Below are positions 3 to 10,851 of a DNA stretch of 10,851 bases, one piece after another. Location: NCBI GenBank assembly GCA_038203565.1, contig JBBRDV010000045.1, forward strand, positions 1 to 10,851, read 5' to 3'. Origin of the DNA: Atribacterota bacterium (GTDB lineage Bacteria > Atribacterota > Phoenicimicrobiia > Phoenicimicrobiales > Phoenicimicrobiaceae). Each line of letters opens with the position of its first letter. Position 1 is the first letter of the stretch. The translations under genes were made by a program, and so were the position numbers. Below the pieces are notes generated by a model, which saw only the letters and a list, made by a program, of their open reading frames with translations, did not search any database and was not told where the DNA came from.

Positions 3-779
3 TTAAAATCCTAAGTACCAAGAAATGATTTGCTTGCCCCATAAAAGGGTGATGAGCGAACCTAAGACAATGAAGGGCCCAAAGGGAATAGTATCTTCTC
101 TTTTTTTAATCTTGCTCATAATTAAGATAATTCCGATTAATGCTCCTAAGAAAAATCCTAAAAAAAGTGAAATAATGATATATCTCCAACCCAGGAAGGC
201 GCCGATCATGGCTGCGAGTTTAACATCTCCTCCCCCCATCGCTTCTTTCTTATAAATCGCCGAGCCGCCCAAACTAATAATTAATATTATTCCTCCTCCG
301 ACCACTACTCCCAAAGCTGAATTTATAAATGATATATAAGGAACAAAAAAACTTAAAATAAATCCTATTACTATCCCCGGCAAAGAAATTACATCAGGTA
401 TAATCTGTTTCTGTAAATCGATAAAAGTAATAATGATAAGAGCTGATGATAAAATAACATAAATTAAAGTCTGGATACTTAAACCGTATACCAGATAAAT
501 GATTGTATATATAACTCCGGTTAGAAATTCTACTAACGGATACTGGATAGAGATCCGGCTTTTACAATTACGGCATCTGCCCTTCAGTAGAATATAACTT
601 AACAGAGGGATATTATCAATCGGTTTTATTGTGTTACGACATTTGGGACAATGAGATGTCGGATATACTATTGATTCATTTCTGGGTATTCTATGAATAC
701 AAACATTGCTAAAACTTCCTACGATTAGCCCTAATAGACTTAAGACGACTATTGAAATAATTTCTATTTCATAATACAT
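3..779 (-). CDS. pilD: Prepilin peptidase / N-methyltransferase (A24 family)
   Basis: GSFxNVCIHRIP motif, two CxxC Zn-binding pairs (CPKC, CRNC), catalytic Asp motifs FID and MGGGDVKL, C-terminal IPFGPF, multiple TM segments; lies in a pilin/pilC locus. Confidence 0.95.
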   Translation of the reverse strand: MYYEIEIISIVVLSLLGLIVGSFSNVCIHRIPRNESIVYPTSHCPKCRNTIKPIDNIPLLSYILLKGRCRNCKSRISIQYPLVEFLTGVIYTIIYLVYGLSIQTLIYVILSSALIIITFIDLQKQIIPDVISLPGIVIGFILSFFVPYISFINSALGVVVGGGIILIISLGGSAIYKKEAMGGGDVKLAAMIGAFLGWRYIIISLFLGFFLGALIGIILIMSKIKKREDTIPFGPFIVLGSLITLLWGKQIISWYLGF

Positions 780-813: not shown

Positions 814-1203
814 TTATTTTTTAACGGTAACATTTAAATGGAGGACCTCACCTCGGCGATCGATACCATCAATGGTAAGGGTGTCAATTCCATCAAAAAA
901 AACCACCACCTCGCCAGGACTGCTCCAGCCATTTTTAATTTGAGCTTCTCTGGTAATGGGGTTTTGTACACTTAAAGATTTAATAATATTATCTATATCA
1001 TTCCAGATAAGTACTGGATGTTTGTCTAGCATCAATAATTTTATTTCTTTTTCTACCGATTCTACATTTGATTTTATAATTTTTATTTCATTTTGCTCCA
1101 CATACCAGTGATAAACACGAGGAGCATAAAAAATTATTAATCCGATAATAATAACCCAAATTATTAAAGTGATGATAACTACGCCGCGCTTGTCGGATAA
1201 CAT
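814..1203 (-). CDS. Type IV pilin-like protein (minor pilin lacking Glu+5)
   Basis: Basic leader MLSDKRG followed by a ~20-aa hydrophobic helix (VVIITLIIWVII...). The body aligns by eye with the two major pilins: IKSNVESVEKEI ~ VKANAGTVQTLI; NPIT ~ NPVT/NPFN; PGEVVV ~ PGQIQI/DGEVYV; TVKK ~ TVRK/TARK. Confidence 0.7.
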   Translation of the reverse strand: MLSDKRGVVIITLIIWVIIIGLIIFYAPRVYHWYVEQNEIKIIKSNVESVEKEIKLLMLDKHPVLIWNDIDNIIKSLSVQNPITREAQIKNGWSSPGEVVVFFDGIDTLTIDGIDRRGEVLHLNVTVKK

Positions 1204-2533: not shown

Positions 2534-2998
2534 CTATTTTCTCGCAGTTAAATCAGTAGTATAAACTCGCTCATCCGCTGTAGCAGAAGTATTAGCATTA
2601 ATTAAATACTGTCCAGTGCCGGCAGAACTATAATACACATATACTTCTCCATCAAGAGCGCCAGCATTTGGCACAGTTGTGGCTGTAAGTATTCCTGTGA
2701 GATAATTCGCGTCAGCGCCCTGTACGAGACCAGTTACAGGATTAACTATACCGGAAGCGAGAACTAAGTTATTTAAATATCCTGCTGCATTAATTACAAG
2801 AACTGTCTTATCAGCCAATTCTGCCTGAATTAAGGTCTGAATGGTTCCTGCATTAGCTTTAATTACGGCATTTTTCGCTTTGTCCTGTTGTCCAGTATAA
2901 AGTCTTAAACCTAAGAGTGCCAATACACCGATGATAGCCACAACGACCATCAATTCGATTAAGGTAAAACCTTTTTTACTTTTTCTTAAACTATACAT
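2534..2998 (-). CDS. Type IV pilin (PilA-like, candidate major pilin)
   Basis: KKG|FTLIELMVVVAIIGVLA class III signal peptide with Glu+5; AAGGAG RBS; own terminator; no Cys. Confidence 0.92.
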   Translation of the reverse strand: MYSLRKSKKGFTLIELMVVVAIIGVLALLGLRLYTGQQDKAKNAVIKANAGTIQTLIQAELADKTVLVINAAGYLNNLVLASGIVNPVTGLVQGADANYLTGILTATTVPNAGALDGEVYVYYSSAGTGQYLINANTSATADERVYTTDLTARK

Positions 2999-3047: not shown

Positions 3048-3209
3048 ATTGAAAAATCGGTAGTTTAGCGGTCATAACATGGTTCAAGGTATATGAGATT
3101 GCTTCGTCACTACGTTCCTCGCAATGACAAAAGGAGACGTCCTCGCAATGACAATGTTTTAGACCTAAACTTTGCGTTCTATCCTTTCGAATAGTTTACC
3201 TTTTTCAAT
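3048..3209 (-). promoter_or_regulatory. Cyclic di-GMP-I (GEMM-I) riboswitch aptamer with a repeat inserted in L3
   Basis: Minus strand: P1 ATTGAAAAA/TTTTTCAAT (9 bp); GGTAAA; P2 CTATTC-GAAA-GGATAG; AACGCAAA; P3 GTTTAG-GTC/GAC-cg-CTAAAC; receptor-like TAA...ATG; distal stem AACAT/ATGTT; TACCGA. It ends 49 nt before the pilin ATG. Confidence 0.85.
3095..3153. repeat. GAGATTGCTTCG...CTCGCAATGACA palindromic repeat module (full copy plus half copy)
   Basis: Full unit 3095-3129 and half unit CCTCGCAATGACA 3141-3153; the same arrangement recurs at 4983-5040 and 7583-7640. Confidence 0.85.
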
Positions 3210-3307
3210 TTTTTTTATTTTCCGGTATTCAATCACTTCCTTTTATACACTCCCGTTGGGAGGTTATTCTTTTCTTTAAAAGTAGACTCGAGTTAACAGA
3301 GAAGATA

Positions 3308-3392
3308 GATTCCCGCTTCCCTCTGCCTGTGCGTTTACGCACCTGTCTGCGTACGGATACGCACAGGCAGGCGCAGACAGGCGGGAATGACA
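3308..3392. repeat. ATTCCC-N8-GGGAAT (dRS3-like) repeat carrying two nested 30-nt CCTG...CAGG elements
   Basis: Host arms 3308-3321 and 3382-3392; outer element 3322-3341 plus 3372-3381; inner inverted element 3342-3371. Confidence 0.85.
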
Positions 3393-3411
3393 GAAAGAAA
3401 ACAATCCTCTC

Positions 3412-3474
3412 AATAACCATGCTTTAGATCTAAACTTTGCGTCCCATCCTTTCGGATAGTTTACCTTTCTCAAC
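3412..3474 (-). promoter_or_regulatory. Second c-di-GMP-I aptamer, 5' half only
   Basis: GTTGAGAAAGGTAAACTATCC-GAAA-GGATGGGACGCAAAGTTTAGATCTAAAGCATGGTT: canonical core and a near-duplicate of 3159-3209. No separate ATG...CTAAAC-TACC/P1 3' strand was found before the next aptamer. Confidence 0.75.
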
Positions 3475-3513
3475 TTTTTAAATTTGTTAGCTTTATTCTT
3501 TTCTATTTATATT

Positions 3514-3539
3514 ATTCCCAATTTTGGAAGTTTTTAGAC
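3514..3539 (-). promoter_or_regulatory. Putative SigB/SigF-type promoter (GTCTAA-N14-GGGAAT) for the riboswitch-pilin transcript
   Basis: GTCTAA (3539-3534), 14 nt, GGGAAT (3519-3514). Close to the B. subtilis SigB consensus GTTTAA-N12-14-GGGWAW and duplicated at 4025-4050. Confidence 0.65.
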
Positions 3540-3546
3540 AAGATGT

Positions 3547-3570
3547 AGAAAAATATTTTAATATTTTTCT
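3547..3570. terminator. AT-rich inverted repeat, possible weak terminator or operator
   Basis: AGAAAAATATT-tt-AATATTTTTCT, 11 nt after the stop of pilin 3582-3971 and just upstream of the -35 box. Confidence 0.35.
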
Positions 3571-3581
3571 GATTCACCGAT

Positions 3582-3971
3582 TTATTTTCTAACGGTGAGT
3601 ATATCGGGAAGTAGTCCATCGGCTCCATAGCCTTGGATAGAAAATACTCCTGAAGATAAGGTAATCTGAATTTGACCAGGTGTAATAGCACTTTCCGGAA
3701 ACCATCCTGCTGTATTCATAGCAACTCCATTAAAGGGATTATGTAAACCGGTAGCTCTTGCTATATCTACAGCTCCTTCAAGATTAACATCTGTATCTGC
3801 AAGTTCTGCCTGGATTAAAGTCTGAACTGTTCCGGCATTAGCTTTAACCATGGCATTTTTAGCTTTATCTTGTTGATTTAAATAAAGTCTTAATCCCATC
3901 AAAGCTAATACACCAATGATAGATATTACTACTAATAGTTCAATTAGAGTAAAGCCTTTTTTATTTTTCAT
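3582..3971 (-). CDS. Type IV pilin (PilA-like paralog)
   Basis: KKG|FTLIELLVVISIIGVLA with Glu+5. The first ~55 mature residues are nearly identical to the 2534-2998 pilin (QQDKAKNAxxKANAGTxQTLIQAELAD); the C-terminus is divergent. Confidence 0.92.
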   Translation of the reverse strand: MKNKKGFTLIELLVVISIIGVLALMGLRLYLNQQDKAKNAMVKANAGTVQTLIQAELADTDVNLEGAVDIARATGLHNPFNGVAMNTAGWFPESAITPGQIQITLSSGVFSIQGYGADGLLPDILTVRK

Positions 3972-4024
3972 TAATTGTCCTTTAGGAACTTTTCTAATAA
4001 AATTTAAATACTTATATTTATATT

Positions 4025-4050
4025 ATTCCCAAATTTTAGATTTTTTAGAC
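4025..4050 (-). promoter_or_regulatory. Putative SigB/SigF-type promoter (GTCTAA-N14-GGGAAT) for pilin 3582-3971
   Basis: GTCTAA (4050-4045), 14 nt, GGGAAT (4030-4025). The boxes are identical to 3514-3539 while the spacer has diverged. Confidence 0.65.
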
Positions 4051-4113
4051 AGAATGTATTAAATTAGCAATTTTGCTAATTTGATAATTGACCAATTTAT
4101 CGATTCAAAAGAT

Positions 4114-4323
4114 AGTATATAGTATCGAGTATCGCGTATCGAGTTAATAAAGAGAAAGAAAATAAATTAAATGAAAATAGAAAAAAGATCTAAATGTAAG
4201 CTTTTTGTATAACTGCTTTCCTAAAGTATATACTAACCGATTTACCAATTCACCAATTAAAATAGTCGTTGGTCGTTAGTATTTAGTACTGAAAATGCAG
4301 GTTGCGAGTTGCAGGTTACAAGA
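4114..4323. repeat. Cluster of short heptamer/octamer tandem repeats
   Basis: agtatat-agtatcg-agtatcg-cgtatcg (4114-4141); taccaatt-caccaatt (4243-4258); agtcgtt-ggtcgtt-agtattt (4264-4284); tgcaggt-tgcgagt-tgcaggt (4296-4316). Confidence 0.6.
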
Positions 4324-4332
4324 AGGAAAAGA

Positions 4333-4387
4333 CGGGTTCGATGCCTGCCTGTGCGTTCCCGCACGCAGACAGGAATCGAACCCCTAC
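4333..4387 (-). repeat. GTAG-type REP hairpin with a 30-nt CCTG...CAGG element in its loop
   Basis: Minus strand GTAG-GGGTTCGAT-T[insert 4344-4373]C-ATCGAACCC; near-identical copy at 9619-9673. Confidence 0.85.
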
Positions 4388-4391
4388 AGTT

Positions 4392-4428
4392 CACCCCCAC
4401 CTTAGTCCTCCCACCTAAATAGAGAGGA
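4392..4428. repeat. CCCCACCTTAATCCTCCCC...GGGGAGGA repeat (degenerate copy)
   Basis: Matches copies at 6974-7011 and 9681-9715, and a half copy at 2413-2425. Confidence 0.7.
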
Positions 4429-4459
4429 AATCAGGAATGACAGGCGAGACGCCTGTCCT

Positions 4460-4581
4460 TTAGTTTTTTTGATAAATTTTTCTTATTCTAATTCCCACCT
4501 CATTAACTACCATAAAATTCCCTTCTAAAATGTTCTTTGCTTTTTCTAATACTTCTTTTACTAACCTAAAAGAAATTTCAT
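4460..4581 (-). pseudogene. DUF5615/PIN-like toxin remnant with an internal deletion
   Basis: ATG 3 nt after the DUF433 stop. Reads MKFLL (typical MKFLLDEN start), then out of frame RLVKEVLEKAKNILEGNFMVVNEVGIRIRKIYQKN* (typical C-terminal ...RIRIR strand). Confidence 0.7.
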
Positions 4582-4584
4582 AAT

Positions 4585-4830
4585 TTACTTTACCGCTTTT
4601 AGCAAATGAACTTCTTCTCCATGGAATGATTCTGCAGCATATTCTAAAGCAACTTGAATATCTTTTGATGTAAGGTGTGGATAATCTTGGAGAATTTTAT
4701 CAATAGAAATATTTTGGGAAAGTTTTCGCAATATTATTTCTACCGGAATTCTTGTTCCCTTGATAACCGGTTTACCGAACATTATCTTGGGATTTATTTC
4801 TATTCTTTTTGATAAATTTTCTTGAAACAT
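4585..4830 (-). CDS. DUF433 family antitoxin (VapB45-like)
   Basis: RIEINPKIMFGKPVIKGTRIPV...ILQDYPHLTSKDIQVALEYA signature; GGAGG RBS. Confidence 0.92.
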   Translation of the reverse strand: MFQENLSKRIEINPKIMFGKPVIKGTRIPVEIILRKLSQNISIDKILQDYPHLTSKDIQVALEYAAESFHGEEVHLLKAVK

Positions 4831-4982
4831 AGTGTTTGCCTCCTATTGTTTTGCTGTGTGAAAATAGATATATTATTTACTTATTATTATTTTATCAGTT
4901 CTTTAGTTAATTTGCCAATTTATGTGACGATATTACCTTCTAACAGTCAATTTATTTAACTGTTTTATTATTACTAACAGTT

Positions 4983-5040
4983 GAGATTGCTTCGCCATTA
5001 CATTCCTCGCAAAGACAGTGGAAGGTGTTCCGCAATGATA
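4983..5040. repeat. GAGATTGCTTCG...CTCGCAATGACA repeat module (degenerate)
   Basis: Full unit 4983-5017 plus half unit ending at 5040. Confidence 0.75.
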
Positions 5041-5048
5041 GGAAAATA

Positions 5049-5100
5049 GATTCCCGTTTCCACCTGCCTGTGCAAGCACAGCAGACAGGTGGGAATGACA
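5049..5100. repeat. ATTCCC-N8-GGGAAT repeat with a 27-nt CCTG...CAGG variant element
   Basis: GATTCCCGTTTCCA[CCTGCCTGTGCAAGCACAGCAGACAGG, 5063-5089]TGGGAATGACA. Confidence 0.85.
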
Positions 5101-5243
5101 TGGAGGAGGTGGAAATTACAAAAATGATTACGAGAATTACCCCAGTGAAGTATGGCTTTAGGGGGTAAGTCGCATTAAATATTAAATGTAATTTAATAGG
5201 GTAGACATAAAAAGAAAGCGGGAATGACAAGAAAAAAAATAAA

Positions 5244-5302
5244 GTCGGTAGCCTGGTGGTTATAGTAATCAAGAACCTTTTTTTATAGGTTCTTCTGATA
5301 CG
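5244..5302 (-). other. Probable orphan 3' half of a c-di-GMP-I riboswitch
   Basis: 5245-5265 matches the aptamer 3' strand at 3057-3077 at 15 of 21 nt, all differences being transitions. It is preceded on the minus strand by an 8-bp hairpin (5271-5278 / 5287-5294) in the L3 position. Confidence 0.45.
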
Positions 5303-5314
5303 AAACTATTGAAG

Positions 5315-5656
5315 TTAAAAAACAACATCAATTGTTTCCGGTTGTTTCATAATGTATTGCAAAAAACCAGCCTGTTTTTCTTTTTTCCTAGTAAATTCTT
5401 CAGGTGAGAAGGCAAGAACCTCTATCGGTTCCATTACTTCAGCCAATGCATCTCCGATAATCTCCCATCGTTTCCAAAAGGGCATCCTGGAAAACTTGGG
5501 TGAAACTAATATGAGATCTATATCACTATCTGGCCTAAAAGTGCCTCTTGCTCTGGAGCCATATAAATATACTTTTTCAAGTATTATACCTTTAGATTTT
5601 AAGGAATTTATAAACGACAACACAATATTGTTTAACTCACTTGTTGTTTCAGGCAT
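5315..5656 (-). CDS. Minimal nucleotidyltransferase (MNT) domain protein of a HEPN/MNT pair
   Basis: VYLYGSRARG...DSDIDL motif; GGAGGT RBS; overlaps the end of the HEPN gene. Confidence 0.92.
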   Translation of the reverse strand: MPETTSELNNIVLSFINSLKSKGIILEKVYLYGSRARGTFRPDSDIDLILVSPKFSRMPFWKRWEIIGDALAEVMEPIEVLAFSPEEFTRKKEKQAGFLQYIMKQPETIDVVF

Positions 5657-6015
5657 TTTATTACCTCCCTTGCATTTTTGAGATATTTTTTTGCAATCGA
5701 TGAAGGATACTGCTCAATTAACATTTTAAGCTCATCCGGGTAACGAGTAGCCACTGCCGCAGTATTTAACTGTGCTATAAACCTTACTTGAGAATCTGAT
5801 AGCTCCACCTTGCATAACTTCAATAAATAAATCAAGTTATGTGTTTTAGGAGGAGCTTCTCTAAGGTATTCAACTACCATAGCCTTTAATGACTTTTCAA
5901 TTGCAAGATGGCTCATAAAAACACAATATATATAACGTCCCGCTTTAAACATAGCCTGTGCTGTATCGATATCATATTCCGCTTGGGTAATCCATTCAGC
6001 AGTTTCATCTCGCAT
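5632..6015 (-). CDS. HEPN domain protein
   Basis: W...AEYDIDTA, F.SHLAIEKSLKA, PPKTHNL and TRYPD motifs; coupled to the MNT gene. Confidence 0.92.
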   Translation of the reverse strand: MRDETAEWITQAEYDIDTAQAMFKAGRYIYCVFMSHLAIEKSLKAMVVEYLREAPPKTHNLIYLLKLCKVELSDSQVRFIAQLNTAAVATRYPDELKMLIEQYPSSIAKKYLKNAREVIKCLKQQVS

Positions 6016-6043
6016 GTAATCTCATCCCCTATTAATAATCTAT

Positions 6044-6183
6044 TTATTTAACTATTTTATATTTTCTTTTAAAACTTTTTTGTTTTTCGTGTAACTAAAC
6101 TATAATATTTAGTAATTCCTTGATATATATTCGCCAGGCAATTCTTTTAGAAGATCATCAAGCTTTTTCTTTGGTATATTCAT
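6044..6183 (-). pseudogene. Possible DUF2281-like small antitoxin remnant
   Basis: MNIPRKKLDDLLKELPGEY, then after a 2-nt slip in an AT run IKELLNIIV*LHEKQK...; resembles the LPxxxxKELLDFIxFL pattern. Upstream TG-A-TATAAT at 6224-6216. Confidence 0.35.
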
Positions 6184-6300
6184 AATTAAAACCTTCGTTC
6201 AATTATTTTAAGAATATTATATCACCTTAAACTGATAAAAAGAAATATCCTCTTCTCCAATTATCCAATTTTCTAATTAAAGTTAGAGGAAAAAGATTAC

Positions 6301-6366
6301 AGGAACTTCGGCTATATAGGCTTGGTCTTTTTCGCTCCACCATACAATAACTTCGTATTTATACAT
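6301..6366 (-). pseudogene. hicB: HicB antitoxin 5' fragment (frameshifted, truncated)
   Basis: AGGAGG RBS, then MYKYEVIVWWSE and, after a 1-nt shift, DQAYIAEVP. This is the classic HicB N-terminus (...EDxxYxAxVPELPGC), and it stops before ELPGC. Confidence 0.75.
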
Positions 6367-6411
6367 TCTTCTCCTCCTTATGAAGTTTGTATTTTATTAT
6401 TATTTTCTAAT
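6359..6411 (-). pseudogene. HicA toxin 3' stub fused to the end of the RelE-like gene
   Basis: IRK/(shift)IIKYKLHKEEKNV*, with its stop overlapping the hicB start; resembles HicA C-termini of the type ...QVRxIIxKYKL. Confidence 0.45.
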
Positions 6412-6669
6412 GGTGGCAAATTTATAGACATCTTTTCGATTGCCAATAGCAATTATTCTTATTTCTTTATCAACAATTCTATAAATAATTCTCCAATCCC
6501 CTACTCGTAGTTTTCTATAGCCCCTTAAATTTCCACGAAGATAAAATCCATACTTTATTGGATTAACCATTAAACGATTCCTAATGGCAATTTCTATTCT
6601 TACGGCAATATCAGAACTCAATCTTGGGATATCTTCATTTTTTACTTTGGGATGATATTTAATTTTCAC
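6400..6669 (-). CDS. RelE/ParE family toxin
   Basis: LRGNLRGYRKLRVGDWRIIY...IIAIGNRKDVY motif; the GTG start overlaps the antitoxin TGA. Confidence 0.92.
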   Translation of the reverse strand: MKIKYHPKVKNEDIPRLSSDIAVRIEIAIRNRLMVNPIKYGFYLRGNLRGYRKLRVGDWRIIYRIVDKEIRIIAIGNRKDVYKFATIRK

Positions 6670-6899
6670 TTTTGTTTTTTATTCCACACTTCTTCATGGG
6701 TTAAGCCATTTTCCCAATTAAATTTATCTTCCCTTTCAGATGCAATCCTATCGAAGTATCTATCCTCAAAGATCTCTAATCCTTCACAGATTAAATCTCT
6801 ACAAAGACTGGAAATTGAAACTCCCTTTTCTTCCGCCATTTGTTTTATTAAGTCCCTAACGGGGGGTTCTAATAATACAAGTGTTCTTTGATTACTCAC
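6666..6899 (-). CDS. RHH-family antitoxin partner of the RelE-like toxin
   Basis: RTLVLLEPPVRDLIKQMAEEKGVSISSLCRDLI (RHH), acidic C-terminus LTHEEVW. GTG at 6899 is preferred over 6908 because the GAGGTG RBS lies at 6911-6906. Confidence 0.85.
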   Translation of the reverse strand: MSNQRTLVLLEPPVRDLIKQMAEEKGVSISSLCRDLICEGLEIFEDRYFDRIASEREDKFNWENGLTHEEVWNKKQK

Positions 6900-6918
6900 A
6901 TTTATCACCTCTATTCAT

Positions 6919-6948
6919 AGAGTATCATATATGATACATTATTGTCAA
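6919..6948 (-). promoter_or_regulatory. Sigma70 promoter with palindromic operator of the RelBE-like operon
   Basis: TTGACA (6948-6943), N18, TACTCT with upstream TG; 16-bp palindrome GTATCATATATGATAC (6922-6937). Confidence 0.6.
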
Positions 6949-6973
6949 AAATTATTGCAGGTTCGATAAAGAT

Positions 6974-7011
6974 TCACCCCACCTTAATCCTCCCCCCCTC
7001 AAGGGGGAGGA
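6974..7011. repeat. CCCCACCTTAATCCTCCCC...GGGGAGGA repeat
   Basis: Hairpin TCCTCCCCC / GGGGGAGGA, preceded by a REP half (GGTTCGAT, 6960-6967). Confidence 0.8.
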
Positions 7012-7028
7012 TAATTTAAGAAAGGATG

Positions 7029-7083
7029 GATTCCCGTTTCCGCCTGCCTGTGCGTTTACGCACGCAGACAGGCAGGAATGACA
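7029..7083. repeat. ATTCCC-N8-(G/A)GGAAT repeat with a 30-nt CCTG...CAGG element
   Basis: GATTCCCGTTTCCG[7043-7072]CAGGAATGACA. Confidence 0.85.
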
Positions 7084-7094
7084 TAAAGAGAAGG

Positions 7095-7544
7095 TTATGT
7101 GGCTTCGTATACGTGTATTTGGAAGTCTTCACTGTTGAATTTTTGTAATTTAACACTATTTACTGCCGGAACTACTACAAAAACTCTATCATTATTATCT
7201 TTTGGGTCTATAGGATAGGCAAAAAATCCTTTACGTTCCGGATTATAGCTATGGGTGGTACCATAGAAATTTTCACCATCCCTAAATATTATTATTACTT
7301 TGCGTTCACTTGGCGTTCTTTTGGGTTGTCCCTCAAAAGTTCTAACTTTTTTATAATTCTTATCGCCGATAAAATCTTTTACAAAAAATACCGCTTTAAG
7401 GGAAGATATCTCTATTTCTAAAATTTCATTACCATCTTCTTCTATGGTATGTAAATGAAATACATCTGCATTGGGCTTAAAATCAGTTGACCAACCTTTT
7501 CGGATTTCACCATCTTTAAATTTTACTACAATTTTGTTTGACAT
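7095..7544 (-). CDS. Conserved hypothetical protein, DUF6982-like, paralog 2
   Basis: Two internal beta-rich repeats (KIVVKFKDGEIRKG / KVIIIFRDGENFYG), LKAVFFVKDF and GFFxYPIDPKDN motifs. The family name is from recall. Confidence 0.75.
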   Translation of the reverse strand: MSNKIVVKFKDGEIRKGWSTDFKPNADVFHLHTIEEDGNEILEIEISSLKAVFFVKDFIGDKNYKKVRTFEGQPKRTPSERKVIIIFRDGENFYGTTHSYNPERKGFFAYPIDPKDNNDRVFVVVPAVNSVKLQKFNSEDFQIHVYEAT

Positions 7545-7582
7545 TATTTTTTAGTTTCCCTTCTTTGTATAATTTATTATAC

Positions 7583-7640
7583 GAGATTGCTTCGTCGCTT
7601 CGTTCCTCGCAATGACAGAGGAAAATGCCTCGCAATGACA
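7583..7640. repeat. GAGATTGCTTCG...CTCGCAATGACA repeat module
   Basis: Full unit 7583-7617 plus half unit 7628-7640, lying between the two paralogous genes. Confidence 0.85.
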
Positions 7641-7650
7641 GATTTTTACT

Positions 7651-8073
7651 TTATATTTCAATTTTCTCCAGGCGGACGTTCTCTACTGCTGAATGAACTA
7701 CAAAAATTCTTTCACTGTTATCTTTTGGGTCGATAGGATACATAAAGAATCCTACTTTGTGTCTGCCATAGTTGTGACTGGTACCGTATAAATGTTCTCC
7801 ATCTTTAAAATTAACAATTAACTTACGTTGGCTGGGAGTTATATTAAAGTCAACGTTAAAGGTTCTAACTTTTTTATAATTTTTATCTCCTATAAAATCT
7901 TTTACAAAAAATACTGCTTTTAAAGGCTCAAAATTAATTTCCATTCTCTCTTCTTCGCTATATTCAATAAGCGGAAAAAATATAAATGATCCTCTATCGA
8001 GTCGAAAATCTTCAACCCAGCCTTTTATAATTTCTCCATTTTGGTATTTTACTACAGCCTTTTTTTTGTGCAT
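7651..8073 (-). CDS. Conserved hypothetical protein, DUF6982-like, paralog 1
   Basis: Shares an identical 22-aa block LKAVFFVKDFIGDKNYKKVRTF with 7095-7544; GGAGGAG RBS. Confidence 0.75.
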   Translation of the reverse strand: MHKKKAVVKYQNGEIIKGWVEDFRLDRGSFIFFPLIEYSEEERMEINFEPLKAVFFVKDFIGDKNYKKVRTFNVDFNITPSQRKLIVNFKDGEHLYGTSHNYGRHKVGFFMYPIDPKDNSERIFVVHSAVENVRLEKIEI

Positions 8074-8088
8074 TTTATTAAGCTCCTC

Positions 8089-8112
8089 CGGGTTTGGTAA
8101 ACGAACCCCTAC
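8089..8112 (-). repeat. Degenerate GTAG-type REP without the insert
   Basis: CGGGTTTGGTAAACGAACCCCTAC compared with the reconstructed empty REP CGGGTTCGATGAATCGAACCCCTAC. Confidence 0.6.
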
Positions 8113-8159
8113 CTTTTAGTAGGCATACAGGTCTGCCCTGCTTGAGATTGCATTTAAAA

Positions 8160-8870
8160 TTAAATATCTTTTAATTCTTTTTTTAAAGTTTTTAAGGCTT
8201 CGTTTTTTATTCGAGAAACCTGCCTTTGGGAAATCGTTAATTTTTTGGCTGTTTTAGCCTGAGTCAGATCTTTGATGAAAATATAGTTAATAACCTTACG
8301 CTGTAAATTTTTTAATTTATTTAAAGCAAGCTCTAAGGCAATTAAATCTTCTACAGGCAGCCGAAAGCTTTTATAATGGTCATTCTTTATTTTTTCTAAT
8401 GAAGGCTGCTCATTGTAGTCATAAGTACGATTTCCCTGGTCAATAGAAACCACATGGACAACATCTCTTGCCTTTAACACCTCTTTAACTCCTTCTACTG
8501 TAAGGTTAAACTCTTCTGCAATTTTTTTTAGAGATGGTGTCTGTTTAGTTTCTTCTTTATATTTTACTATATATTCGTCTATTCTCCTATTCAGTTCAGT
8601 TATCCAGTGAGGAATTCTTATGGGTTGATGTTTATCTCTGATATAATGCCTGATTTCTCCGGAGATAAACCAGGAGGCATAGGTTTCAAATTTCACTTTC
8701 CGTTGTTGATTATAAAGATTTATAGCATTAATTAGGCCAATATACCCTAACTGCTCTAAATCTTCTAATGGCTCACCAGAATTTTTAAATTGGTAGGCAA
8801 TATTTTTTACTAAAGGTTTGAATTTTAGAATCTGTTCGTCAGTGATTTCTTTATTTATATCTAATGCCAT
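8160..8870 (-). CDS. RNA polymerase sigma factor, SigB/SigF/SigG family
   Basis: Region 2 EDLEQLGYIGLINAI...KFETYA...GEIRHYIRD, region 3, and region 4 HTH TQAKTAKKLTISQRQVSRI; GGAGG RBS. Confidence 0.92.
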   Translation of the reverse strand: MALDINKEITDEQILKFKPLVKNIAYQFKNSGEPLEDLEQLGYIGLINAINLYNQQRKVKFETYASWFISGEIRHYIRDKHQPIRIPHWITELNRRIDEYIVKYKEETKQTPSLKKIAEEFNLTVEGVKEVLKARDVVHVVSIDQGNRTYDYNEQPSLEKIKNDHYKSFRLPVEDLIALELALNKLKNLQRKVINYIFIKDLTQAKTAKKLTISQRQVSRIKNEALKTLKKELKDI

Positions 8871-8890
8871 AATAATGCTCCCTCCACACC

Positions 8891-9604
8891 TTAATCGCTT
8901 TCGATGCTTTCTTTTAATTCTTTAAGGGCAGAATCTTTTATTCGGGAAATTTGCCTTTGAGAAATGCCCAATTTACGAGCTATGTTTGTTTGAGTTAAAT
9001 CTTTTTCGAAAATATAATAGATTACTTTTCGCTGTAAATTTTTTAATCTGCTCAAAGCAGTTTTTAAAGCAATAATATCTTCTATCGGCAGTTTAAATGT
9101 TTCATAATTTTTACTCTTTATTTTTTCTATTTTAGGATAGCTGTCAGAATTATATTTTCTCTGTTCCTGGTCAAGGGAAACTATTTGAACTGCCTCCCGA
9201 GCTTTCAGAATTTCTTTTATCCCTTCTTCGGTTAGGTTAAATTTTTCAGATATTTCAGAAAGTGATGGAAATCTATTATTTTCTTTTTTATAGGAAATAA
9301 TAAATTCGTCTATTTTTTTATTTAATTTTAACATCCAGCCGGGAATTTTTATTACCTGATGCTTGTCTCTGATATAATGACGGATTTCACCGGAGATAAG
9401 CCAGGTAGCATAGGTTTTGAATTTTACTCCCCTTTCGTGATTGTAAAGATTAAAGGCATTGATTAATCCTACATAGCCCACTTGTTCTAAGTCTTCTAAG
9501 GGTTCTCCAGAATTTTTGAATTTATAAGAAATATTCTTTACCAAGGGTTGGTATTCTTTTATTTGAGCATCGGTTATTTTTTGTGTGTTAGCTGTTACGG
9601 TCAT
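8891..9604 (-). CDS. RNA polymerase sigma factor, SigB/SigF/SigG family (tandem paralog)
   Basis: EDLEQVGYVGLINAF...KFKTYA...GEIRHYIRD and TQTNIARKLGISQRQISRI; colinear with 8160-8870. Confidence 0.92.
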   Translation of the reverse strand: MTVTANTQKITDAQIKEYQPLVKNISYKFKNSGEPLEDLEQVGYVGLINAFNLYNHERGVKFKTYATWLISGEIRHYIRDKHQVIKIPGWMLKLNKKIDEFIISYKKENNRFPSLSEISEKFNLTEEGIKEILKAREAVQIVSLDQEQRKYNSDSYPKIEKIKSKNYETFKLPIEDIIALKTALSRLKNLQRKVIYYIFEKDLTQTNIARKLGISQRQISRIKDSALKELKESIESD

Positions 9605-9618
9605 AATAGTGATCCTTG

Positions 9619-9673
9619 CGGGTTCGATGCCTGCCTGTGCGTTCCCGCACGCAGACAGGAATCGAGCCCCTAC
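9619..9673 (-). repeat. GTAG-type REP hairpin with the 30-nt CCTG...CAGG element
   Basis: Insert at 9630-9659; differs from 4333-4387 at a single position. Confidence 0.85.
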
Positions 9674-9680
9674 AAATTAA

Positions 9681-9715
9681 TCCCCCCACCTTAATCCTCC
9701 CCTTAAGGGGGAGGA
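9681..9715. repeat. CCCCACCTTAATCCTCCCC...GGGGAGGA repeat
   Basis: Hairpin TCCTCCCC / GGGGAGGA beginning 17 nt after the pilC stop. Confidence 0.8.
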
Positions 9716-9732
9716 AAGTGTAAGAAATATTT

Positions 9733-10851
9733 TTATTGGATTAGGTTTACCATGTTAAATATCGGCAGGTACATGGCGATGATCATAACGCCAACAGTTA
9801 AAGCGATAAATGCCATCATAAGCGGCTCAATAATGGCGGTTAGCTTTTCTACAGCCCTATCCACTTCTTCATCATAAAATTTTGCTACATTAAGTAACAT
9901 TTCTTCTAACTCACCACTCTCTTCACCAACCATGATCATCTGGGTAACCATAGGAGGAAATACGCCGCTGGCGGTTAGAGGGCCTGAGATGCTCTGTCCT
10001 TCTTTTATCTTTGTTCTGGCACCAAGAACAGCCGAAGATATGACTAAGTTTCCTATAGCATTAGATGATACCTGTAATGCTTCCAAAATAGGGACTCCGC
10101 TTTTAATCAAGGTTCCGAGAATTCTGGTAAACCTGGAAACAGCACTTTTTCTATTAATTTCACCAATTATTGGCGCATGTAATTTAAATTTATCAAAATT
10201 AAGTTTGCCACTCGGTGTTTTTTTATAAGACAAAAAAGCAGCAACCAAGCCGGCAAAAACTATAAAAAATAGATACCAATACTTGTTAAATAATATGGTC
10301 AAGGTTACAAAAAATTGGGTAAGAGCCGGAAGTTCTCCGCCAAATTGTTTAAATACCCCTACAAATTGGGGTAAAATAAAGGCTAACATAAAAATAGACA
10401 TGATTACTGCAGCACCGGCTACAAAAGAAGGATAAGCCATTGCAGATTTTACTTTCTGTCTAAGGGCAAATTCCTTTTCCATTAAATCTGCAATTTTATT
10501 TAATATTTCGTCTAATACTCCTCCGACCTCCCCCGCTCTAACCATACTAAGATATAATTCAGAAAATACTTGAGGATATTTTGCCATGGCATCAGCTAAA
10601 GTAGATCCTGCTTCAACATCAGACTTAATTACATTAATATTATTCGCTAATGCTTTATTTTCCACTTGTTCAGTCAAGATATCTAATGAGTTTACCAAGG
10701 TTAAGCCGGCATTAACCATGGTAGCAAATTGTCGATAAAATATGGTTAGGTCTCTGAGTTTTATGCCTTTGAAAAGGTTTAATTGCGTAGAAAATAGAAT
10801 ATTTTTCTTTTTTTCGATGACGGAAGTAATATAGTAATCCATTTCTCTGAG
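9733..10851 (-). CDS. pilC: Type IV pilus inner-membrane platform protein PilC (GspF family), 5'-partial
   Basis: FYRQFATMVNAGL, MVRAGEVGGVLD, SAMAYP, GEESGELEEML and IIEP motifs. The frame stays open to the window edge (LRE precedes the Met at 10842), so the true start is probably outside the window. Confidence 0.95.
   Translation of the reverse strand, partial: LREMDYYITSVIEKKKNILFSTQLNLFKGIKLRDLTIFYRQFATMVNAGLTLVNSLDILTEQVENKALANNINVIKSDVEAGSTLADAMAKYPQVFSELYLSMVRAGEVGGVLDEILNKIADLMEKEFALRQKVKSAMAYPSFVAGAAVIMSIFMLAFILPQFVGVFKQFGGELPALTQFFVTLTILFNKYWYLFFIVFAGLVAAFLSYKKTPSGKLNFDKFKLHAPIIGEINRKSAVSRFTRILGTLIKSGVPILEALQVSSNAIGNLVISSAVLGARTKIKEGQSISGPLTASGVFPPMVTQMIMVGEESGELEEMLLNVAKFYDEEVDRAVEKLTAIIEPLMMAFIALTVGVMIIAMYLPIFNMVNLIQ

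Follow-up and report, generated by a model that had tools for sequence, protein, structure and literature searches.

Contig JBBRDV010000045.1 (C45) of an Atribacterota bacterium, analyzed here over its whole length of 10,851 nucleotides (nt; the window), carries a part of a type IV pilus locus in which two genes for SigB/SigF-like sigma factors directly follow pilC and in which the box GTCTAA-N14-GGGAAT occurs twice in the vicinity of genes for major-type prepilins. The comparisons reported below make it probable that genes for the pilus and for surface proteins form a regulon that is driven by a dedicated group-3 sigma factor and gated by cyclic di-guanosine monophosphate (c-di-GMP), the sigma factor working in a similar way to SigF of cyanobacteria. 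The source genome (G000) is an assembly of 1.97 Mb in 218 contigs with 99% completeness from a lineage whose order label we take to be JS1; all genes discussed lie on the minus strand.

Sigma factors and promoter-like boxes of the pil locus

The two sigma genes encode proteins of 237 amino acids (aa) (sigma 1, 8891..9604) and 236 aa (sigma 2, 8160..8870); sigma 1 starts 128 nt after pilC and is separated from sigma 2 by 20 nt, and both coordinates and domains confirm the tandem arrangement reported in the preliminary description of this DNA. Regions 2, 3 and 4 of the sigma70 family (PF04542, PF04539, and PF04545) were recognized over cut-off in both proteins, which have the architecture of the group-3 SigB/SigF/SigG branch (sigma2, sigma3 and sigma4 without region 1.1, about 240-260 aa). 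The best NCBIfam model was TIGR02980 (SigBFG) with 187.3 and 174.1 bits, under its cut-off of 234.35; the Sigma_B equivalog TIGR02941 scored 129.8 and 129.7 bits against a cut-off of 315, and the FliA/WhiG model 109 and 99 bits, which is under both the SigB/F model scores and its own cut-off of 189.6. Judged from these scores, the two proteins are a divergent side branch of the group-3 SigB-branch sigma factors, and the closest solved structure is that of Staphylococcus aureus SigB (PDB 8X6G, E-value 1.5e-26). Sigma 1 and sigma 2 share 61-64% identity; region 2.4 of sigma 1 reads GEIRHYIRD, and region 4.2, as noted earlier, reads ISQRQISR in sigma 1 and ISQRQVSR in sigma 2. The other five sigma70-family proteins encoded in G000 have unrelated C-termini and none of them possesses this region 4.2, which in RpoD is the ordinary TRERIRQIE. 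The homologue search retrieved 729 proteins at an E-value of 1e-40, the best 120 of which are all at least 85% identical and therefore say nothing about other phyla.

Exactly two matches to GTCTAA-N12-16-GGGAAT were detected in the window, both with a spacer of 14 nt, as compared to a mean of 0.01 in shuffled sequences, none of which (0/200) reached two. Box A (4025..4050) lies 53 nt upstream of the gene for a 129-aa major-type prepilin (3582..3971), the leader of which is devoid of riboswitches, and its predicted -35 and -10 elements would place the transcription start near 4015. Box B (3514..3539, predicted start near 3504) lies 42 nt past the stop of the same gene and 515 nt upstream of the gene for a 154-aa major-type prepilin (2534..2998), which would thereby have a leader of about 505 nt. 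Both exact boxes had been recognized before, each as preceding a major pilin; the two c-di-GMP-I riboswitches between box B and its pilin had been missed. Likewise, the spacers had been called diverged, which is true only to a mild degree: 9 of 14 bases are identical, and the two boxes belong to a direct repeat that is 55 nt long and 80% identical. From the window alone, the boxes are thus compatible with a remnant of a duplication, an origin that is ruled out by the genome and the relatives.

Six exact N14 boxes are present in G000, compared to zero to two copies for each of the other spacings from 8 to 21 nt and an expectation of 0.27 per spacing, and a weight matrix separated eight sites (scores of 34-45) from the next best one (22). 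The six high-scoring boxes outside the window are located upstream of riboswitch leaders or run off the contig. Judged from their N-termini, the genes after those riboswitch leaders appear to encode secreted or lipoprotein-like proteins; one riboswitch-led gene of G000 encodes an InlB B-repeat-like Pfam domain. Moreover, a box with one mismatch (G000:C17:1307-1332) lies between the first and the second minor-pilin gene, ahead of the remaining pilus assembly cluster, and an exact or one-mismatch box is found at the same position in two relatives (G015 and G009). The consensus box, TGTCTAAA-N11-12-GGGAATA, is found in front of the major pilins, of the operon for minor pilins and of most leaders with a c-di-GMP-I riboswitch in G000: 10 of the 11 riboswitches (7 of the 8 leaders) have a box within 400 nt upstream, as compared to 6 of 4000 random positions.

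The S. aureus SigB promoter is given as GTTTWW and GGGWAW separated by about 14 base pairs (bp); in the -35 element R241 contacts the G at -35, S235 the T at -34, M237 the A opposite the T at -33 and Q236 the A opposite the T at -32, while in the -10 element R110, R100, and R97 read the Gs at -15, -14 and -13, and F79/F86 hold the A at -11, as far as the available part of that report goes (PMC11156646). For SigB of Bacillus subtilis, the accessible portion of the source names 14 bp as the best spacer (PMC9847131). The box described here matches the SigB promoter in its -10 element and in its spacer of 13-14 nt and departs from the -35 element at one base only, T to C at -33, which is the position read by M237 in SigB. 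Transfer of the ungapped parts of the SigB structure alignment to 35 full-length homologues revealed that S235 is S or T, Q236 is Q and R241 is R in 35/35, whereas the M237 position is occupied by R in 32/35 and by K in 3/35. The earlier suggestion that the SQRQ motif explains the variant -35 element fits the published SigB structure, the changed residue being the reader of -33; going by common protein-DNA contacts, an arginine at this position would contact the G opposite C-33. Regarding the -10 contacts, R100 is kept and F86 is replaced by Y in 35/35, and R110, the reader of -15G, is kept in only 2/35 homologues; -15G is also the most variable of the three Gs of GGGAAT among 56 collected sites (51/56, as compared to 54/56 and 54/56). 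C is present at -33 in 55/56 of these sites, a count that is partly built in, as the sites were gathered with at most two mismatches to the box. When numbered as in SigB, 41/56 sites have T at -1 and 51/56 a purine at +1, and transcription starts 10 nt past GGGAAT, at 3504 and 4015, are more likely than those 6-8 nt past it that had been predicted. Geometry and residues together support the proposed SigB-type nature of the promoter.

Conservation among relatives and competing explanations

The comparison set consisted of 86 genomes of the phylum, namely G000, 51 relatives of the same order and 34 others. The exact box was detected in 44/51 same-order genomes and in 1/34 others; summed over the 52 same-order genomes (G000 included) there were 123 matches compared to 17 for the reversed control, and over the 34 others 1 compared to 7. 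The sigma factor was found at an E-value of 1e-24 in 36/51 same-order genomes and 2/34 others, and DUF6982, encoded nearly always downstream of the sigma gene, in 33/51 and 0/34, respectively. In an unbiased test with 20 leaders from inside and 20 from outside the order, picked by riboswitch score alone and one per genome, a perfect box with a spacer of 13-14 nt was present in 13/20 leaders inside the order, compared to 0/20 outside, where none had fewer than three mismatches. Furthermore, the fetched loci contained 23 major-pilin genes, 13 of them with a perfect N14 box, 5 with one mismatch, 4 with a perfect N13 box and 1 with none; conservation of the box in orthologous pilin leaders, which had been named as a check, was thereby observed for 22 of 23 genes (at most one mismatch, N13-14, within 750 nt), or for 19 of 20 without the three loci fetched only via the box. 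A further check, pilC-sigma synteny, also came out positive: among 29 sigma loci, which were read entirely apart from the first half of L073, pilC lies upstream in 24, does not in 1, and a contig edge intervenes in 4, so that synteny holds in 24 of the 25 loci with a sufficiently long contig. The exceptional locus (L068:7249-10676 in G019) has a single sigma gene, DUF6982, box and pilin after a PolX/PHP gene, without pilB-pilC.

A number of observations weigh against a dedicated sigma factor as reader of the box. Three SigB -10 contacts differ in the homologues (R74 is L, F79 is R or K, and R97 is H), and the pilin locus of G034 has no box. In 17 same-order genomes neither a full-length sigma of this type nor a pilC match was found, with a pilC query that did match in the positive controls G000, G015, and G034, and 15 of these genomes carry boxes; among the box-bearing genomes without the sigma are G012 (97% complete) and G029 (99% complete, 6 boxes), in which no prepilin was found. 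Two genomes of family f7 encode a sigma with 41% identity and Arg at the same -33 position and have no exact box; the GGGTAT variants that come closest, three in number, lie across open reading frames and not in leaders, and near matches are below the control level. Finally, all genomes are kin, and the co-occurrence of sigma and box amounts to about one evolutionary event. Concerning the sigma-less genomes, the flanking gene mltG was found in 11/17 and all 11 contigs end before the pilC position, which makes assembly gaps the likely cause of the absence; G075, G001, G079, and G085 retain pieces of the pil locus. The f7 sigma was additionally considered as a member of the same system and set aside: its gene lies in a different neighbourhood, after genes for a prepilin peptidase and a DnaB_C-like protein, with no exact box, RF01051 or DUF6982.

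Also to be counted against a dedicated sigma is the hexamer TANNNT, which begins at the last T of GGGAAT in 40/53 boxes and is compatible with a sigma70 -10 element. Together with the persistence of boxes in 15 assemblies without the sigma, this register would suit an RpoD promoter with an activator site, in which TANNNT is the real -10 element, GTCTAA and GGGAA bind a transcription factor and the pil sigmas have another task. We regard such an arrangement as unlikely, given that the consensus has no TTGACA-like hexamer 16-18 nt before TANNNT and region 4.2 of RpoD is standard, that the element is not palindromic, and that its spacer alternates between 13 and 14 nt as in promoters. Moreover, the match to SigB geometry and the pairing of the Met-to-Arg with the T-to-C exchange would have to be coincidence, and the sigma-less assemblies break at this very locus. 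Still lower is the probability that another alternative sigma reads the box or that the box was simply carried along when riboswitch leaders were duplicated. GTCTAA is known as -10 element of RpoE/AlgU-type promoters and G000 has two sigmas of the size of extracytoplasmic function (ECF) factors, but a conserved element is missing at 16-17 nt before GTCTAA, and the fixed GGGAAT 13-14 nt downstream would be left unexplained; sigma54-like sites in the window are not above chance either (2 found, 3.9 expected). In favour of such a passive spread, duplication of the leaders is evident and GGTCTAA occurs within the aptamer; against it, the two hexamers hardly vary, in contrast to the spacer and to the 33-227 nt that separate box and aptamer, and pilins without a riboswitch are preceded by the box as well.

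The preliminary description had proposed a self-contained pilin regulon with twin sigmas and twin promoters. Taken strictly, the sigmas would then be confined to the two pilin promoters, possibly with one promoter per sigma. This would agree with the tight synteny of pilC, sigmas and pilins and with the tree of sigma factors (59 rows, excluding rows shorter than 150 aa or with X; 11/13 third paralogues were recovered by script), where the sequences of sigma 1 and those of sigma 2 fall into two distinct, supported groups throughout the genus (6 rows, 100/98; 8 rows, 98/95). It is nevertheless highly improbable: the scan of the genome that had been suggested returned boxes beyond the window, the six further high-scoring ones as well as that in front of the minor-pilin operon all being on other contigs, so that a pilin-dedicated regulon is too narrow a concept. 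Twin sigmas for twin promoters fare no better, since both hexamers are identical in the two window boxes, sigma 1 and sigma 2 agree at the mapped base-reading residues except for the Arg110 position, three relatives (G019, G021, and G023) have a single sigma at the locus, and the sister family f2 has one full-length sigma yet often two boxed pilins. One promoter class with one working specificity appears to fit best.

Proposed control by the sigma factor, c-di-GMP and partner proteins

With a dedicated sigma factor as the favoured explanation, we propose that the sigmas are likely produced from the pilB-pilC transcript. Autoregulation through the box was considered and rejected, as in G000 the best match in front of either the sigma genes or the pilB operon has three mismatches. 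Domain sigma4 would read G-35, T-34, C-33, and T-32, the position of SigB Met237 being taken by Arg, whereas sigma2/3 would read GGGAAT, transcription beginning 10 nt further, and both sigmas may act redundantly on the one promoter class. A second gate would follow after initiation, in that c-di-GMP bound to the class I aptamers tunes one pilin and several secreted or lipoprotein-like genes, while the 129-aa pilin, lacking a riboswitch, would be under control of the sigma alone.

Both riboswitches of the window are over the RF01051 gathering threshold of 35 bits. In copy 1 (3389..3475, 41.8 bits) the 5' half is intact, and an alignment of nine leaders showed repeat DNA where relatives retain the 3' strand, for which reason this copy is likely decayed. 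Copy 2 (3056..3210, 57.7 bits) is intact and has a 72-nt palindromic insertion in a loop, similar to loop insertions in relatives. In total, 11 c-di-GMP-I riboswitches were identified in G000 and up to 17 per genome among the relatives. The ligand-reading G before G(C/U)AAA marks c-di-GMP rather than cyclic AMP-GMP as ligand, and GG precedes (C/T)A in 11/11 copies of G000, fitting this specificity position. It is therefore c-di-GMP that the aptamers presumably bind, thereby modulating the downstream genes. Folding of the 3' tails of the riboswitches gave no consistent terminator, and a run of U residues directly follows P1 at the end of most aptamers. If class I aptamers were OFF switches here, a high level of c-di-GMP would reduce the 154-aa pilin but not the 129-aa pilin, and the composition of the filament would shift.

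The pil operon itself contains further candidates for a response to c-di-GMP. The pilC gene (9733..10851, two T2SSF domains according to Pfam) is cut at its 5' end by the contig end, and its start was found on contig C42 downstream of pilB, which has a Pfam MshEN match, and of a gene for a GAF/HD-domain protein with a GYP motif (G000:C42:8622-11831; the same order at L072:5128-8099). The latter is likely a c-di-GMP phosphodiesterase, and given an MshEN-type PilB and the GAF/HD protein in one operon, c-di-GMP may exert its effect at multiple levels. Another PilB-like ATPase, which is 50% identical, is encoded 6 kb upstream of the pil operon (G000:C42:948-2663) and shows a clearer N-terminal motif of the RLGEIFVETG type. 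Four GGDEF genes are present in G000.

The absence of an RsbW-type anti-sigma from the window, reported earlier, holds for the whole assembly as well: G000 yielded no PF13581 match over cut-off, its weak matches being long kinases, and no RsbW-type gene lies beside the sigmas in the 29 loci, a search that did not include RsbV and RsbU. Over-cut-off matches to PF13581 occur in 19/52 genomes, mostly in 310-aa proteins, and the one examined is a CBS-kinase in a hydrogenase-type gene cluster. As no RsbW-type partner was found, the activity of the sigma may be set by its expression or by a further partner, for which the DUF6982 pair and, in f2, DNA-blind sigma paralogues are candidates. The DUF6982 proteins a (140 aa, 7651..8073) and b (149 aa, 7095..7544), assigned by Pfam, are 54% identical and predicted to be all-beta, the model consisting of two small beta-barrels with a predicted local distance difference test (pLDDT) value of 90. 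Each half resembles Hfq/LSm chains weakly (Z 3.3-4.6, root-mean-square deviation 1.8-4 Å over about 50-60 residues; none with Z of 5 or above), and Foldseek returned no match at an E-value of 0.001. Hfq of cyanobacteria, which binds PilB, may offer a parallel. In the ESM Atlas, DUF6982 clusters occur in Acidobacteriota and Thermodesulfobacteriota without an assigned function. The predicted complex of sigma 1 with both DUF6982 proteins scored 0.01, compared to a mark of 0.32.

In family f2 the single full-length sigma is preceded by a copy of 174-186 aa without domain 4 (11 complete cases, e.g., L065:10840-11364), which is the first sigma after pilC and ends with a stop after 174-186 aa; the 11 proteins form one clade (100/100). 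The groups of the sigma tree, though not their branching order, are well supported, and the short copy may be an orthologue of sigma 1. A third f2 paralogue (L085-L097), encoded elsewhere in the genome, lies downstream of a c-di-GMP-I riboswitch in 13/13 cases and has an exact N14 box in 9/13; R100, R241 and mostly the SQR motif are missing from the protein, and the gene that follows has an HD_5 domain in 6/9 cases tested. Decoy roles of these degenerate copies are speculation. A correspondingly bold proposal, which we rate as doubtful, is a new circuit design in which a sigma adapted through a single residue to a promoter of its own, located before nearly every riboswitch, would be controlled not by RsbW but by DNA-blind paralogues and the tandem-Sm DUF6982, and in which the f2 copy lacking sigma4 and the boxed, riboswitch-led third copy, followed by an HD-domain phosphodiesterase, would serve as decoys in a c-di-GMP feedback loop. 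In any case, conserved sigma paralogues that seem unable to read the promoter raise a testable question on their role.

Comparison with known systems and other features of the window

In Synechocystis PCC 6803, SigF drives pilA1 from a promoter with TAGGC and GGTAA elements and sigF is autoregulated, according to the part of the source available (PMC2758279). To that extent, the system inferred here resembles SigF in having a SigB-branch group-3 sigma, tandem major pilins plus some surface genes as probable targets and a dedicated promoter with a GG(G)-type -10/-12 element. Contrarily, the box is different, the sigma genes are in the pil operon, duplicated and not preceded by a box, and most targets carry c-di-GMP riboswitches. 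With S. aureus SigB, as far as portrayed in the accessible text, the 14-nt spacer, the GGGWAW -10 element and the residues S235, Q236, R241, and R100 are shared. Unlike in Firmicute SigB, however, the -35 element is GTCTAA, Arg takes the place of Met237, R110, R97, F79, and R74 differ, the scores are under the Sigma_B cut-off, no RsbW was found, and the putative targets are pilus and surface genes instead of general stress genes. With Arg/C-33 as compared to Met237/T-33 of SigB, this order allows the recognition code of sigma4 to be examined in a natural setting, and the Arg/C-33 pair of sigma and promoter could be orthogonal to SigB.

For Rubrobacter, a (RsiG)2-(c-di-GMP)2-WhiG switch has been described in which, from what the available portions of the reports state, c-di-GMP acts via a protein anti-sigma (PMC8325347; PMC12871210). 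Both systems would have one regulon in which a group-3 sigma is combined with c-di-GMP, with type IV pili and with genes for the turnover of c-di-GMP. By contrast, WhiG belongs to the flagellar sigma28 clade and uses the promoter TAAA / GCCGATAA, whereas here the promoter is of the SigB type and c-di-GMP is proposed to act via RNA downstream; in addition, RsiG is a coiled coil and the DUF6982 proteins are all-beta according to prediction. In Clostridioides difficile, the part of the source at hand reports 16 c-di-GMP riboswitches, of which Cdi-2-4, a class II ON switch, controls pilA1, while class I riboswitches act as OFF switches (PMC6200980). The abundance of c-di-GMP riboswitches before surface genes and a major pilin is common to both; in the pilin leader described here the aptamers are of class I and arranged in tandem, and a single type of box, ascribed to an alternative sigma, stands before most leaders, whereas a shared promoter before the riboswitches is not described in the accessible text on C. 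difficile (PMC6200980). The present system would accordingly represent a third route joining c-di-GMP and a group-3 sigma at type IV pili, beside the Rubrobacter anti-sigma and the C. difficile class II riboswitch, and for a lineage that is abundant in the subsurface and uncultured it supplies a consensus promoter, a candidate for the sigma factor and a list of targets. Literature searches, which were light on subscription journals, returned no paper on this regulon or on pilus regulation in this lineage, none naming DUF6982, and nothing relevant on the box sequence or on a truncated or decoy sigma of this kind.

The order of genes on the minus strand is pilC, sigma 1, sigma 2, the two DUF6982 genes, a toxin-antitoxin-type block, the genes of the 129-aa and the 154-aa pilin, an AbiEi gene, a pilin-like gene and pilD. 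The pilin-like gene (814..1203) encodes a conserved 129-aa protein without a Pfam match, which precedes pilD in relatives, and pilD (3..779) encodes the prepilin peptidase (A24). The AbiEi antitoxin-like gene (1549-2311, PADLOC E-value 6.8e-62) occupies the site where many relatives have an O-antigen-ligase/TPR gene after pilA, and only a 50-aa frame is present at the position of its partner. The toxin-antitoxin-type insert between DUF6982 and the pilins (4585..6908; RHH-ParE/RelE, HEPN-nucleotidyltransferase, and DUF433) is outside the regulon, and its gene content differs between relatives. Ordinary promoters had been ascribed to its genes; sigma70-type sites do precede some of them (TTGACA-16-GATACT at 6948 and TTGGCA-18-TAAAAT at 4918), but with 55 such sites in the window, as compared to 43.9 ± 7.0 in shuffled sequences, their frequency is close to that expected by chance. 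A short leftover reading frame (6245-6365) downstream of a sigma70-like site at 6419 is possibly the remnant of another toxin-antitoxin gene. Moreover, short GC-rich palindromic repeats of several families are found in intergenic positions throughout the window (3095-3153, 3298-3401, 4333-4401, 4983-5109, 6967-7092, 7583-7641, and 9619-9727).

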